Shown here: positions 5,584 to 11,103 of the stretch, one piece after another
Layout: every line of letters starts with the position of its first letter
Position numbering within the stretch: position 1 is the stretch's first letter
Source of the DNA: a virus
Length of the DNA stretch: 64,000 nt
Virus record (IMG/VR): IMGVR_UViG_3300021960_009431
Direction: 5' to 3' (one strand)
Program-made: the position numbers and the translations under genes
The notes under the pieces: generated by a model
The model's input: only the letters and a program-made list of their open reading frames with translations
Database searches by the model: none
What the model was told of the DNA's origin: nothing

Positions 5584-8400
5584 TTATGCAAAACGACTCA
5601 TAGCAGCTGAAGTATAACTTGTATCAACTCTTACATTTCTAGCAGCTGCTGTTCTTGCTGCACCGCTACCTCTACCTGCAATCATTTGACTATTATCAAT
5701 ATTATTAACTACAGTAGTAACTGGTACGTTAATTTGATTTGACATCGTTGCTAAACTCATTGCTGAAGGTGTAACTGTTGGTTTATCTATGGTATCTAAA
5801 GAAGCAATAGCAGGTGCACTAGGTAATGAACCTATCTCAAATTCTCCAGCAGGTAGCGGGGCAGTTCTAAATACAGTACCTCCAAGAGTTACTCCACCGC
5901 CTCTTATCATATCATCCCTATAACCTATATTAGTTCCAGCTCCATAAGCACCAGTAGCTGCAGCTGTAAAGTCTTTCTGATCCCTAGATACTTTTGGTAA
6001 AACATTGATTGCAGCTTCAGCAATATCTGCTTGAGACTCAACACCCGGTCCTTCCAAAAACATTGGACTGGGCTGCCGTCCATTTGCTGATGTTCCAGTG
6101 ACTGCTTGAAATTGATTTTTAGCTACTAAAGCTCCTATAATACTGCCATCTGGGTGATCTTGATATTGAGTACGAGCACGGTTTAATATTGACCCCATAA
6201 TCATACCTTTTTCTACTGTATAATCACCGCCGGTTTGAGCTGAAGATTCAGCATAAACTGCTCTAACCAGATAATTTAATTCAACATCAGATACAGGTCG
6301 TCCTAGATATTGTTCTATAGCTTCACGAGGTGTGAGCTCTGCAGAAGGTATTACATCATCTTGAGGCGTAGCTTGAAGATAATCAGAAATTTCTGATTGT
6401 GGAACAAATGTATCATTAAATGTACCTATAGGGTATTGATCATAATTACCAGTCACTGGTAGATCACCACCACCATATATATAATCTGTATCAGAAATAG
6501 CATCAAGAGCATTGTATTCCATACCAGGTGCTACATTACCTTGCATCCCCGGCAGTCTACCCGATGAAACTTTACCAATTGGGTTACTTCCTGGAGCAAA
6601 TCCTAACTCTCTATTAACAGTAGCATCAATAGCTGGTTGCATATCTATTTGATCTTCAGCATCAAGTGCCCATAATAATAAAGATCTAACTATATAATCT
6701 CCACTAATATATCCAGCAATACCAGCAATTGCACCTGTTAGTGGAGCAAATGGACCACCTATTAATGCTCCAGCAGCTGCAGCTAACACACTTACTGTTA
6801 GTCCGGCAAATTCTCCTGACACCATTGCCACTTTTTGAGTAGTACTAAGCGTATCATCTGTTAAAATATAATATGTAGAACCAGCAGCAAATGCAACACT
6901 CAATCCAGGCACTTTACCTAACAGTTTATTTAATTTTGGGTATTTCGAAAGAGCACTTCTCTTAGCATCATCTATTGAAGCAAACGTGCCAGGTTTTTGT
7001 CCACCTGCTCCTGTTGCACCGGGTGCTACTCTATATCTTTGCATTTTTTTATCAAAGACATATCCAGATTGCCTTAACGGTGTTTTTGCAGCGCTTAGAG
7101 CTAAAGCAGCTGCAGTACCCACAGCAGCACTATCCATCAATTTATTAAATTCACCTTCTATAGATTCATCTAAATTTTCATCAATATTAGTATCAGATTC
7201 ATCTTCATTAAATAAATCTGCTATACCTAATCTATTGAATGTATAAGCTGCTATTGCAGTTGCAGCGGTTGCAATAAGAAGACCTTTACTTCTACCTAAC
7301 AATCTAGGTTTTAAAGCTTTAGCTCCTTTTGGAGCTTTTTCTTTACCAGCATTTGCTGCTCCAGCTGCTAAAGCTAAAGGTGTTAAAGCAACTGTACCCA
7401 TTGCTAATGCACTTGCAATCAATGCTCCATATTCTGATAAGGTTTCACTTTCTAAGAAATCAAATAGTTCATCTTCATTGTCAGGTTCAAAGAAATCATC
7501 TAATCCAAAATAATTAAATGCAAAGTAAGCCATTGCACCTGCTAATGGTATTATTAATTTTCCCTTTACACCTTTTGCTCCAAATAAAGATGTAGCTAAT
7601 CTTGCTCCTAAGAAAAGGCTTGTTGCAGTACCTGCATTTACTAAACCTTCACCGGTTATTTCTACTCCAGTTTTTTCTTTAAATATTTTAAAAAATTCAG
7701 TTTCGAAATCAGTTTCTAAAGTTTTAATTCCTTCATCAATTGCATCCGCTACATCTTGATTAGCTTCAGGATTAAAGAATGCATTTAGTCCTAGATAGCC
7801 TAGCATAAAGGTTGCCATAGCGAGAGGAATTGTTTTAAACTTAGCCCCTCCCATTAAGAATGCAACTAAACCAGCTCCTGCAGCGGCGGATGCTACAGGA
7901 TTATTTTGTATAGCGCCTGCTAAACCACCATTACCATCTTCTCCAAAGATTAATGAATCGAATTTATCTCCGGCACTTTTCTTAAATTCATCATATGCCT
8001 CATCACCAGCTAACTCATCTTTAAAATCATCTAATCCAAAATATCTATAAGCTGCTGTCCCAAGTATACCTAATAAACCAGCAGTAATAAGACCTCTTAA
8101 TAGACCACCTCTTGCTGTTGTATCTAGAGAACCAATAGCAGCAGGTCCCGTTTCACTTTCCATTCTAGCTGAAGCTTGTTGTAAACGGTCTTCTTCTCTT
8201 TGTTGTTCAGTTAATCTTAATTCTTCGTCTTCTTTTGCTAAACTATCTACGCGCATTTGTTCAGCGAGAGTATCTGATTGAACAGTAAGAATATCTACGA
8301 CACTTTCTAAGCGCGTATTAGATTGTATAAGAGTACTTCTTATATCTTCGAGTAATGTGGAATTATTTTCCAAATACTCTCTTACTGCGACGTCAGCCAT
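5584..8400 (-). CDS. Tape-measure/hub-like (gp29-like) protein with C-terminal SleB/Hydrolase_2-type lytic domain
   Basis: Long Ala/Gly-rich helical and hydrophobic stretches; LVRAVYAES...ILNRAR...KNQFQAV hydrolase motif; lies downstream of gp26/gp51. Confidence 0.65.
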   Translation of the reverse strand: MADVAVREYLENNSTLLEDIRSTLIQSNTRLESVVDILTVQSDTLAEQMRVDSLAKEDEELRLTEQQREEDRLQQASARMESETGPAAIGSLDTTARGGLLRGLITAGLLGILGTAAYRYFGLDDFKDELAGDEAYDEFKKSAGDKFDSLIFGEDGNGGLAGAIQNNPVASAAAGAGLVAFLMGGAKFKTIPLAMATFMLGYLGLNAFFNPEANQDVADAIDEGIKTLETDFETEFFKIFKEKTGVEITGEGLVNAGTATSLFLGARLATSLFGAKGVKGKLIIPLAGAMAYFAFNYFGLDDFFEPDNEDELFDFLESETLSEYGALIASALAMGTVALTPLALAAGAANAGKEKAPKGAKALKPRLLGRSKGLLIATAATAIAAYTFNRLGIADLFNEDESDTNIDENLDESIEGEFNKLMDSAAVGTAAALALSAAKTPLRQSGYVFDKKMQRYRVAPGATGAGGQKPGTFASIDDAKRSALSKYPKLNKLLGKVPGLSVAFAAGSTYYILTDDTLSTTQKVAMVSGEFAGLTVSVLAAAAGALIGGPFAPLTGAIAGIAGYISGDYIVRSLLLWALDAEDQIDMQPAIDATVNRELGFAPGSNPIGKVSSGRLPGMQGNVAPGMEYNALDAISDTDYIYGGGDLPVTGNYDQYPIGTFNDTFVPQSEISDYLQATPQDDVIPSAELTPREAIEQYLGRPVSDVELNYLVRAVYAESSAQTGGDYTVEKGMIMGSILNRARTQYQDHPDGSIIGALVAKNQFQAVTGTSANGRQPSPMFLEGPGVESQADIAEAAINVLPKVSRDQKDFTAAATGAYGAGTNIGYRDDMIRGGGVTLGGTVFRTAPLPAGEFEIGSLPSAPAIASLDTIDKPTVTPSAMSLATMSNQINVPVTTVVNNIDNSQMIAGRGSGAARTAAARNVRVDTSYTSAAMSRFA

Positions 8401-8581
8401 TTTGCTCTCTCTGTTTCTCTATTTTTTCTAGATAGGTTTTTAACATATCAATATAAACATCACGCTCAAAAGGTATCATATTTTCTATTTCTTCTAACGA
8501 ATATTTATGATGTTGCATCAAATTAAAATTCGTATAGTACATGTTCGCTAAGCTGTTATGGCTTAGCGCTACATAAAAAAA
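8393..8581 (-). CDS. gp51: Baseplate hub assembly catalyst gp51 (start uncertain: ATG 8542 or entry by -1 frameshift from gp26)
   Basis: TNFNLMQHHKYSLEEIENMIPFERDVY motif. Confidence 0.85.
   Translation of the reverse strand, partial: FFYVALSHNSLANMYYTNFNLMQHHKYSLEEIENMIPFERDVYIDMLKTYLEKIEKQREQNG
8546..8581 (-). promoter_or_regulatory. Putative programmed -1 ribosomal frameshift signal
   Basis: Minus strand: T TTT TTT slippery heptamer, 6-nt spacer ATGTAG, perfect 8-bp hairpin CGCTAAGC-cataaca-GCTTAGCG. Confidence 0.65.
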
Positions 8582-9291
8582 CTGTTCAGACCACGTAAAG
8601 GTATGAACTCCTCCTTCCCACACTCTGCACATGTATAGGTAATGTTATGACCAATGTAAGGCATAGTTTTATAAAAGTCAGCTAATTTATTAAATTGTTT
8701 GCTATTTAACTGCTCAACAAATTCCATTAATTCTTCTTTAGTACTATTTTCATGTACATCATCATTGTCAAAAATTATTGAAATATTTTCAGCAAAAAAA
8801 CGTAAAATATTTTCAACGTTACTATCACTAAGTTTTTCCTGGGCTTTGTTTAAACCTGTAATAGTTGGGTATTTCATTACTACACCTACATCATCTGTAA
8901 GCATAATTTTATTATCGTGCTCTTCAGGAAATATAACTTCTACTTCTTCTAAATTTAATTCATATTCAGTAGTATGTTTACATTCACTTTCACCAGGATG
9001 GCGTAAAGAAAGCTTTACAAGATTATTTACTGATCTTGCTCTAATTTGTAAAAACAAATATTCAATATCAAAATTAGGAAGATTAACAATTCTTTTTTCA
9101 TCTAACTTAACACAGCTAGTTAAAATATTAACTACTGCGTTAGTTATTTCTTCTTGATCATTTCCTTCTAATGCCATTAAAAGAAGCTTTTCTTCTTTCA
9201 CAAGGAAAGGTCTAAAATACACTTCTTCTTTTGTAGACGGTATAATCGCTTTAAATTCAGGCACTGCGATTTTTGGTAAAGCCATATTCAC
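8569..9291 (-). CDS. gp26: Baseplate hub assembly chaperone gp26
   Basis: MALPK...FRPFLVKEEKLLLMA, FDIEYLFLQIRARSV, GVVMKYP, C..C..GL.SFF motifs. Confidence 0.9.
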   Translation of the reverse strand: MNMALPKIAVPEFKAIIPSTKEEVYFRPFLVKEEKLLLMALEGNDQEEITNAVVNILTSCVKLDEKRIVNLPNFDIEYLFLQIRARSVNNLVKLSLRHPGESECKHTTEYELNLEEVEVIFPEEHDNKIMLTDDVGVVMKYPTITGLNKAQEKLSDSNVENILRFFAENISIIFDNDDVHENSTKEELMEFVEQLNSKQFNKLADFYKTMPYIGHNITYTCAECGKEEFIPLRGLNSFFM

Positions 9292-9302
9292 TCCATATTA
9301 TA

Positions 9303-10040
9303 TTAAGTAATAGTAAAACCATTAGTATTAAAAGTTGAAATTCCAGTTAATGTTGTAAAGTCAGGAAGTCCTACATCTCCTAAAAAGTCATCAAATATAT
9401 CTGTAACACCAGATATACCTAAACCACTTCTTGCACCTCCACCCTGTGCACCTCTGCCAAGTGAAGGTTCATTCATATCAGTAAAGTACTTGTAAGAAAA
9501 TTGCACATTAAGTTTATGAAACTCTTCACTGTTCCAATTTAGTGGAAGCGAGTTAATAATGATAGGATATGCTTCTCTTAAAGTTATAGCATATGTAGGT
9601 GTACCTTCCTGATTGTATTGAATAATTAAAACATCAGAAATATAATCACTATAATATCCTATACTTTGATGTCTTCTAATATTTTGTTGTCTATTATGAT
9701 TTCCTACAACTATATTTTGCCAAGAAGTAAATAATTTTTTCTCATTTAAATTGGCATCACAAATCATTGAAATATTTACATCTGGGTAAACTACACCATA
9801 CCCTCTCTTTTCAGACAATCCATAACCAGTCGATTTATAATCTGATGACACAATTGATCTACCAGGAAACTCTGCTGAATCGATTCTAAACCTTAAAGGA
9901 TTCAAAGCTGATTTTGCATCATCAGAAAGTAAAGTTTTGCGCGGCAATGATAACCACATTTCAAAATGACTTTGCTTTGATACTTTATTACTATTTTCAC
10001 CTGTAATATTTGATCTGAATGTATTTACATTGAAAGGCAT
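9303..10040 (-). CDS. gp54: Baseplate tail-tube initiator gp54 (gp19-like fold)
   Basis: SAEFPGR, LREAYP.IINSLPLNW, LNVQFSYKY motifs. Confidence 0.7.
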   Translation of the reverse strand: MPFNVNTFRSNITGENSNKVSKQSHFEMWLSLPRKTLLSDDAKSALNPLRFRIDSAEFPGRSIVSSDYKSTGYGLSEKRGYGVVYPDVNISMICDANLNEKKLFTSWQNIVVGNHNRQQNIRRHQSIGYYSDYISDVLIIQYNQEGTPTYAITLREAYPIIINSLPLNWNSEEFHKLNVQFSYKYFTDMNEPSLGRGAQGGGARSGLGISGVTDIFDDFLGDVGLPDFTTLTGISTFNTNGFTIT

Positions 10041-10662: not shown

Positions 10663-11103
10663 TTACTTTCGACCAAGTTCATTCTCAGTTATGATTTGAA
10701 ATTTCCATTTACGATCTTTACAAAACTCTTGAGCAGCTTTCCACTTTGCCTCATTAACTAAATAGGTAGTAACTTCATTAAGAAATCTTCTAGTTTTTCT
10801 TTTTGGAATTTTAGGTTCTTGAGTTTGTTTGAAAGGTTTGACTTCAATTAATGTAGTTTGTACACCGTTATTAGTTTTTGCTTTAATAACAAAGTCTACA
10901 AAATATCTATGTATGCGTCTATCAAGAGGTGATCTATATGGTATTACTATCTCTTCTGATCCCCACTCAAGTATATTAGGATTGTTGTCAAAGTAAACCA
11001 TACACTGTCTTTCCCAGGAACTGCGATAAACAATGTTGGTTGGATCGCCTAAATACTTACTAGGAAACTTAGGTTTATATTTACCTTTATAGGTTTTAGT
11101 CAT
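10663..11103 (-). CDS. gp4: Head completion nuclease gp4 (TnsA-like)
   Basis: YKGKYKP..P.KYLGDPTNIVYRSSWE, HRYFVDF, IEVKP, NEAKW motifs. Confidence 0.92.
   Translation of the reverse strand: MTKTYKGKYKPKFPSKYLGDPTNIVYRSSWERQCMVYFDNNPNILEWGSEEIVIPYRSPLDRRIHRYFVDFVIKAKTNNGVQTTLIEVKPFKQTQEPKIPKRKTRRFLNEVTTYLVNEAKWKAAQEFCKDRKWKFQIITENELGRK

Follow-up and report, generated by a model that had tools for sequence, protein, structure and literature searches.

A predicted -1 frameshift joining gp26 to a gp51-like tail in T4-like phages with a single gp26 gene

Gene organization at the gp26 3' end

The stretch analysed here, called the window, comprises 64,000 nucleotides (nt) of a marine T4-like phage (IMGVR_UViG_3300021960_009431) and shows on its minus strand a gene of the T4 gp26/gp51 family, named gp26, whose 3' end is followed in the -1 frame by a gp51-like tail. 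A ribosomal -1 frameshift at this junction very probably yields a short and a long chaperone form from the gp26 gene. The junction contains the following features:

8569..9285, minus strand: gp26-like gene, with a short product of 238 amino acids (aa) from the ATG at 9285; matches PF12322 T4_baseplate (E 6.5e-58) and phrog_150 (E 9e-64)
8575..8581, minus strand: slippery heptamer T TTT TTT (U UUU UUU), in the X XXY YYZ phase of the gp26 frame
8569..8574, minus strand: 6-nt spacer ATG TAG, consisting of the last gp26 codon and the 0-frame stop
8571-8569, minus strand: stop codon TAG of gp26
8546..8568, minus strand: hairpin with an 8-bp stem, CGCTAAGC (8568-8561) and GCTTAGCG (8553-8546), and a 7-nt loop, CATAACA (8560-8554); candidate frameshift stimulator
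8393..8581, minus strand: -1 frame "gp51" tail, FF followed by 60 codons and TGA (8395-8393); matches phrog_634 (E 5e-25)
8540..8542, minus strand: internal ATG, codon 14 of the -1 frame (first TTT = 1), the start that annotators would pick for a free 49-aa gp51

The gp26 product scores 196.4 bits against PF12322, whose curated cut-off is 24.5, which makes it a member of the T4 gp26/gp51 family, and no second PF12322 gene was found inside the 64-kb window. The program-made list of open reading frames (ORFs) opens gp26 at GTG 9291 and not at ATG 9285; the alignment consensus begins with MxLPK at this ATG, and GGAG lies 7 nt upstream of it. In the -1 frame, a 79-codon ORF matches phrog_634 (gp51, "baseplate hub assembly catalyst"), and the match begins upstream of ATG 8542.

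The 0-frame of gp26 ends ...GGT CTG AAC AGT TTT TTT ATG TAG, the heptamer lying 3 nt ahead of this stop. In the -1 frame the sequence runs FFYVALSHNSLANMYYTNFNLMQHHKYSL... (FFYVALSHNSLANMYYTNF...) and is open until the TGA at 8395-8393. The predicted long product contains residues 1-237 of gp26 and 60 further residues (297 aa in total), with the predicted junction peptide ...GLNSFFYVALSHNSLAN...; the window's equivalent of the family junction peptide ...SFF(Y/R)(V/I)AL... is GLNSFFYVALSHNSLANMYYTNFNLMQHHK. The hairpin has a folding energy of -13.2 kcal/mol, compared with -6.8 +/- 2.1 in 200 dinucleotide shuffles (z -3.0), and its 6-nt spacer places it within the 5-9 nt past the heptamer at which a downstream RNA structure was looked for. 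An Rfam scan of 8300-8750 at E <= 1 gave no family. ATG 8542 shows no purine-rich Shine-Dalgarno (SD) sequence and sits 3 nt past the hairpin, while gp26, the tail-tube-like gene, gp2 and the 938-aa gene downstream each show GGAG, AGGA or GAGAG 6-12 nt upstream of their start. Thus, the heptamer, spacer, hairpin and gp26 end given in the preliminary description of this DNA are exact to the base, and its statements that gp51 lies in the -1 frame after the slip site and has no evident ribosome-binding site of its own hold.

An SD-like sequence, GGGAAGGAGGAG, is contained within gp26 (8608-8619, minus strand), 26 nt upstream of the heptamer, with a duplex energy of -11.7 kcal/mol. At this distance, the strong GGAAGGAGGAG of the window is probably too far from the heptamer to stimulate slipping. 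Stenotrophomonas phage Ps15 carries GGAAGGAGGAG at the equivalent CG(K/R)KEEF codons.

Conservation of the junction among metagenomic relatives

The comparison includes 84 metagenomic loci (80 fetched with the tail peptide and four with gp26; loci carry L numbers), reduced to 70 representatives with less than 90% nucleotide identity; these are related sequences, the probabilities of which are not independent, and their nearby third positions are close to saturation. The check proposed in the preliminary description, whether gp51 stands in the -1 frame behind a slippery heptamer in relatives, turned out in its favour: an in-phase heptamer precedes a tail in the -1 frame in 84 of 84 loci and in nine isolates described below. 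All 70 representatives show six Ts in the same phase, and the gp26 stop lies 0, 3, 9 or 24 nt past the heptamer (0-3 nt in 61 of them). The X base is T in 70/70, in codons that encode S, D, A, N or G and for which T is expected in 34-78% of cases from elsewhere in gp26. TTT serves as first Phe codon in 70/70, versus 70% in the rest of gp26, and other Phe-Phe pairs within gp26 are spelled TTTTTY in just 23 of 57 cases. Amino-acid conservation does not account for the T run, as both the X base and the first Phe codon are more fixed than codon usage would make them. The Z base is free (T in 33, C in 33 and A in 4; n = 70). A fixed X base and first TTT with a free Z base is the pattern predicted by the simultaneous-slippage (X XXY YYZ) rule.

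Codons 3-21 of the -1 frame, from the heptamer to the LMQHHKY motif, show a column entropy of 0.93, 0.72 and 1.52 bits at positions 1, 2 and 3, respectively; L6, H8, L11, N13, F19 and L21 are near-invariant, and their third positions vary freely. No ATG, GTG or TTG is found before codon 19 in 25 of the 70 representatives, and an ATG at the window's codon 14 is present in just six relatives. The start-less stretch, which runs from the slip site to the first codon that could serve as a start, is, by its substitution pattern, evolving as coding sequence, and the -1 ORF would extend the first protein without a conserved initiation signal of its own.

The junction could also encode two independent proteins, gp26 ending at the TAG and a free 49-aa gp51 made from ATG 8542, either de novo or by re-initiation 27 nt past termination, with the T run being simply Phe-Phe codons. 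This ATG is contained in the window and its closest relatives (L002, L003, L006 and L007), some relatives show a TAATG or TGATG stop-start overlap, database annotations list gp51 as a separate gene, and FF is also conserved in T4 gp26. However, the coding constraint reaches upstream of any start (ATG is lacking before codon 20 in 40 of the 70 representatives, and before codon 36 in four), the X base and first Phe codon are fixed as described above, and T4 gp26 spells FF as TTC TTT. Moreover, T4 and the natural fusions have the homologous tail covalently joined to a gp26-like body, and ATG 8542 abuts the hairpin in addition to having no SD sequence. Two independent proteins are therefore a very unlikely account of the junction.

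The stimulatory elements are less uniform than the heptamer. All 8 pairs of the window's stem are kept, via G-U changes, in L002 and L006, and the stem is intact in three of the 70 representatives; the hairpin conservation that the preliminary description proposed to check thus extends to these two relatives and is confined to the window's small clade. A hairpin conserved throughout the family was considered and rejected, its mean pairing being 3.59 versus 2.6-3.2 in slid controls. L047/L048 show a hairpin (1214-1236) in the window's register with another sequence (CTCTAGCT...GTCTAGAG), in which seven of eight pairs form and two double changes are seen with respect to the window. About half of the relatives show an SD-like upstream stimulator (mean duplex -6.2 versus -1.5 kcal/mol; GAG in 63% versus 31%).

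Isolate phages with the same arrangement

An in-phase heptamer, with the gp26 stop 0-24 nt behind it and the tail in the -1 frame, is present in nine isolate phages, whose gp26 proteins are about 25% identical to that of the window:

S-PM2 and HTVC008M: Kyanoviridae
phiM7: Emdodecavirus
ACP17: Busanvirus
Ps15: Menderavirus
V05: Schizotequatrovirus
Ah1: Cinqassovirus
S13: Straboviridae
RHph_I9: Pootjesviridae; the heptamer is here T TTT TTG

A single PF12322 copy is contained in S-PM2, V05, Ah1, S13, HTVC008M, phiM7, ACP17, Ps15, RHph_I9 and VP-1, and in one 87%-complete IMG/VR genome. The -1 tail is found in 10 of the 10 single-copy isolate genomes checked and the slip site in nine of them, the exception being VP-1. 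In ACP17 (L090, 2262-2416), Ah1 (L093, 2217-2384) and S13 (L095, 2169-2333) the gp51-like tail is unannotated, lying in the gap after gp26 with no ATG near its start. None of the 13 database records inspected contains a frameshift annotation.

The same set of sequences bears on whether a homopolymer sequencing error or a recent mutation has split one 297-aa gene. Homopolymers are error-prone, and in-frame versions of the gene exist in one clade, but the same -1 offset with a nearby 0-frame stop recurs in 84 independent contigs and nine isolate genomes from different laboratories and platforms, which makes an artefact or gene decay extremely improbable.

Vibrio phage VP-1 (L089, 1501-2429) shows a PF12322 gene followed by a 58-aa tail ORF. 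Because the junction reads GTTTTTC and contains a TAATG overlap, VP-1 is not a canonical case; its junction represents a slip of non-canonical type (T TTT) or else re-initiation proper.

T4 and other phages with two genes

In T4, genes 26 and 51 are adjacent and divergently transcribed, each with its own start and without a slip site. Being divergent, they allow no fusion. T4 gp26 and gp51 are listed as hub assembly chaperones in Table 2 of Leiman et al. (2010, PMC3004832), where gp51 is described as essential, of unknown function, and required for assembly yet absent from the particle. Both proteins (208 and 249 aa, respectively) match PF12322. T4 gp51 shows, in a single frame, PF12322 over residues 1-201 (E 4e-52) and then a tail, and residues 200-244 of the protein can be aligned with the tail of the window from the junction F onward. 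Since the PF12322 body and the tail are both present and aligned from this residue, T4 gp51 is the in-frame equivalent of the predicted long form. The window contains the same two parts, the PF12322 body and the gp51-type ...Y(S/T)L.E(I/L)E.M.P.ER... tail, and only the predicted frameshift joins them, at the homologous point. T4 gp26 ends ...RGLKEFFELL, with FF spelled TTC TTT, which is not slippery, and it is, by sequence, the equivalent of the predicted short form, including the ...RGL.xFF C-terminus. The difference is that T4 has two paralogous genes and the window one gene with predicted recoding; also in contrast to the window, genes 27 and 28 of T4 separate gene 51 from the tape measure gene 29. 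The frameshift thus belongs to the single-gene lineages and not to T4, because T4 has separate, divergent genes and no slip site. The proposal in the preliminary description that gp26 and gp26-51 are the T4-superfamily equivalents of the lambda pair is accordingly supported for the single-gene lineages and does not extend to T4 itself.

Two PF12322 genes and no slip site are found in T4 and in Acinetobacter phage Berthold, whose gp26 ends ...EFVEVL (TTT GTT, non-slippery). About 1,375 records, from phages of Escherichia, Klebsiella and Acinetobacter and from phages related to these, contain full-length gp51. In the tree, T4 gp26 groups with the single-gene Straboviridae Ah1, S13 and V05 (88/79), and the gp51 N-terminal domain lies on a branch of 5.4 substitutions, so that its placement, and hence the dating of the T4 duplication, is not possible by this tree. 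In the Berthold record (MN709128.1; L129, 2789-6386), the label "tape measure protein assembly chaperone" is given to gp26, gp51 and gp28, and gp29 is entered as the tape measure protein. This is the function proposed here for the window proteins, in a phage that, unlike the window, has two genes as T4 does and no annotated frameshift. Since the record names the proteins in this way, the functional idea already exists among specialists; no paper using this phrase was found.

The in-frame clade and the nature of the predicted slip

A search for longer proteins containing the tail gave two in-frame fusions of 296 aa, and the natural in-frame fusions of gp26 and the tail range from 293 to 315 aa. 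The fusion clade (L102-L111) shows AAT TTT TTT TTT, a run of ten Ts (T10; L102:3696-3705, L103, L105 and L107-L111), with a stop directly after the run in the -1 frame. The long form is, as a consequence of the T10 run, the default product. The sister contig L106 (1347-1355) has nine Ts and a split ORF, and the larger T10-clade contigs checked contain one PF12322 gene each. In this clade the two forms appear to have changed places as default product, and the second product more likely arises by polymerase slippage.

These runs raise the alternative that, in the window too, RNA polymerase adds one U on the T run, from which the same two proteins result. Its site is a homopolymer, with seven Ts (T7) in the window and eight or nine (T8-T9) in some relatives, and the fused T10 clade with its split T9 sister is the typical pattern of polymerase slippage. 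Sites of transcriptional slippage are typically homopolymers of about 8-9 or more, a length that the T7 run of the window does not reach, and T6 runs are not known to be long enough for efficient polymerase slippage; 37 of the 70 representatives have T6, followed by C in 33 and by A in 4. The strict codon phase and the free Z base fit a ribosomal -1 shift instead, as do the hairpins downstream or SD-like elements upstream that many members carry. The many T6-C sites and the strict phase favour the ribosome, and transcriptional slippage is considered an unlikely origin of the two forms.

Fold of the gp26 N-terminal domain

The AlphaFold2 model of the window gp26 was built on a 66-sequence alignment and shows a mean predicted local distance difference test score (pLDDT) of 92.6. 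Models were compared with 48,161 PDB representative chains. Ranks 1-3 for the window model are Rbstp2171 (3fgx, Z score 7.7), YqbN (3klu, 7.2) and HK97 gp13 (2ob9, 7.1), all matching within residues 1-97 and covering about 80-88 residues; these three proteins are all described as phage tail assembly chaperones (PMC9603447). The independent model of the natural fusion P0001, which is 25% identical and has a pLDDT of 95.5, shows the same three on top (Z scores 6.5-6.7). That three chaperones occupy ranks 1-3 twice over by chance is unlikely. Foldseek gave no hit at E <= 0.001 with either model; its best hit for the window model is again 2ob9 (prob 0.80, E 0.4). A search of gp26 against PDB sequences gave no hit. 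In the P0001 model the tail is confidently helical, and residues 238-296 yield generic helical matches only. The modelled N-terminal domain, about 90 residues of gp26, thus shows a resemblance to the tail-assembly-chaperone fold.

Genes flanking the junction

On the minus strand the order is gp4, gp2, the tail-tube-family gene, gp26, the -1 tail and the 938-aa gene. The two genes flanking gp26 and its tail are:

9303..10040, minus strand: tail-tube-like gene directly 5' of gp26; matches PF23849 Phage_TTP_2 (E 2.7e-10) and phrog_45 tail tube (E 1.6e-23)
5584..8400, minus strand: 938-aa gene downstream of the tail; tape-measure-like by position only

Relatives of the tube-like gene are annotated as gp54 baseplate tail tube initiator (S13, RHph_I9 and Ah1). 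The ATG of the 938-aa gene overlaps the stop of the gp51 tail (ATGGCTGA). In HTVC008M, a large gene two genes downstream of gp51 is annotated as "putative tail tape measure". On the upstream side the locus adjoins a gene of the tube family; on the downstream side only the position and size of the large gene fit a tape measure gene.

The preliminary description called the 938-aa protein tape-measure-like, and no homology search tied it to a tape measure. It shows no Pfam or PHROG match as a whole protein (nor a Pfam match when searched in thirds), no BLASTP match to T4 gp29 or to the HTVC008M "tape measure", no phmmer match in PDB and no tblastn match in 50,697 phage records; the atlas gave leads only, below 0.9, to tail lysozyme-like clusters. 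The protein contains several hydrophobic segments and a GL(N/D/A)(A/D)(F/L)F motif followed by an acidic run, which recurs with a spacing of about 94 aa (residues 204, 299 and 392); visual inspection gives a similar YFGLDDFKDE near residue 120.

Proposed mechanism

In the mechanism proposed for the window, most ribosomes would read AGU UUU UUU AUG UAG and release the 238-aa protein. A minority, with two tRNA-Phe on UUU UUU, would slip one base back on U UUU UUU and continue with UAU GUA GCG... in the -1 frame, giving the 297-aa protein with its 60-residue "gp51" tail. The 8-bp hairpin 6 nt downstream probably stimulates the slip in this phage. The short and long forms would be the single-gene counterparts of T4 gp26 and T4 gp51, respectively. 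The slipping itself, its efficiency, its ribosomal rather than transcriptional nature and the binding partners of each form are what we infer from the data above.

Several observations weigh against this mechanism or its assignment to tail chaperones. The hairpin is not family-wide (mean z -0.97) and is absent in most relatives, while the SD-like element that about half of the relatives carry at 10-14 nt upstream is missing in the window (duplex -2.2). The ATG at codon 14 of the -1 frame permits a free 49-aa gp51 as an additional product, and the run of seven Ts could permit some transcriptional slippage. VP-1 (Ackermannviridae) has the homologous tail behind GTTTTTC with a TAATG overlap. The Z scores are below 8, a range in which a match can be a common arrangement, and indicate fold resemblance and not proven homology. 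PF12322 is the sole Pfam hit of gp26 at E <= 0.01, with no Pfam tail-chaperone family matching. Finally, the 938-aa gene is assigned as tape-measure-like by synteny (position and size) and not by homology.

Comparison with known frameshifts

A -1 frameshift of tail chaperone genes is described for lambda gpG/gpGT (Levin 1993; Xu, Hendrix and Duda 2004; reviewed in PMC5009743). As in lambda, the predicted frameshift would give two products with a common N-terminus, with an X XXY YYZ site few codons before the first stop and a short start-less -1 ORF, and the gene is flanked by a tube-family gene upstream and a very large one downstream. The modelled gp26 N-terminal domain also resembles in fold the tail assembly chaperones HK97 gp13, YqbN and Rbstp2171. 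In contrast to gpG-type proteins, gp26 is about 100 residues longer, with about 140 residues of extra domain preceding the slip site; its heptamer is U UUU UUY and not G GGA AAG, and it matches no Pfam TAC family. Of a G/GT-type pair one expects a fixed low ratio of the two proteins, absence of both from virions, and binding of G to the tape measure and of T to the tube protein. The homopolymer site, and the T9/T10 clade in particular, resemble genes with transcriptional slippage on long A/T runs (PMC5009743), from which the window differs in having only seven Ts and most relatives in having six and then C.

The gp26 frameshift probably belongs to the known class of tail-chaperone frameshifts and, by fold, gene order and logic, would be the T4-superfamily version of the gpG/gpGT pair. 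The G/GT-like logic invoked in the preliminary description finds support in the gene order (tube-like gene, gp26, -1 tail, large gene) and in the chaperone fold of the N-terminal domain. More tentatively, the -1 chaperone frameshift could be ancestral to all long-tailed phages, the T4 superfamily among them, with gp26/gp51 and gpG/gpGT as true but far-diverged homologues. It would then have been secondarily hard-wired in T4 and close relatives via a gene duplication in which one copy was fixed in the long form, and the T10 clade would represent a third state, where the long form is the default and slippage gives the short one. This scenario is plausible, with the balance leaning slightly to the doubtful side.

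Frameshifting in tail-chaperone genes is a textbook example of programmed recoding. According to Atkins et al. (2016, PMC5009743) all long-tailed phages "except T4" conserve it, which leaves T4 as the sole exception cited. No paper or annotation reporting a gp26/gp51 frameshift was found in a literature search that most subscription journals lay outside. If the frameshift operates as predicted, the T4 exception disappears, T4 reaching the same end with two genes, and the same device would operate in most of the T4 superfamily, among them the abundant marine cyanophages and pelagiphages. T4 gp26 and gp51, which are essential for hub assembly and whose function has been unknown since the 1970s, would also gain a mechanistic role; under an ancestral frameshift, they would serve to load the tape measure gp29 into the hub and to start the tube. 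The annotation of hundreds of genomes would be corrected where "gp51" is a start-dubious gene of 45-60 aa or is missed (ACP17, Ah1, S13, several ACG-2014 and S-CAM4 records), and the series of three states (frameshift, two genes and in-frame T10) would offer a natural system for the gain and loss of recoding sites.

Other genes near the locus

The plus strand near the gp26 locus contains gp32 and gp48. Two more genes lie upstream of the tube-like gene:

10630-10040, minus strand: gp2
11103-10663, minus strand: gp4

The gp4-like head closure protein (phrog_218; 10663-11103, minus strand) matches the TnsA endonuclease N-terminal domain PF08722 (E 2e-23).

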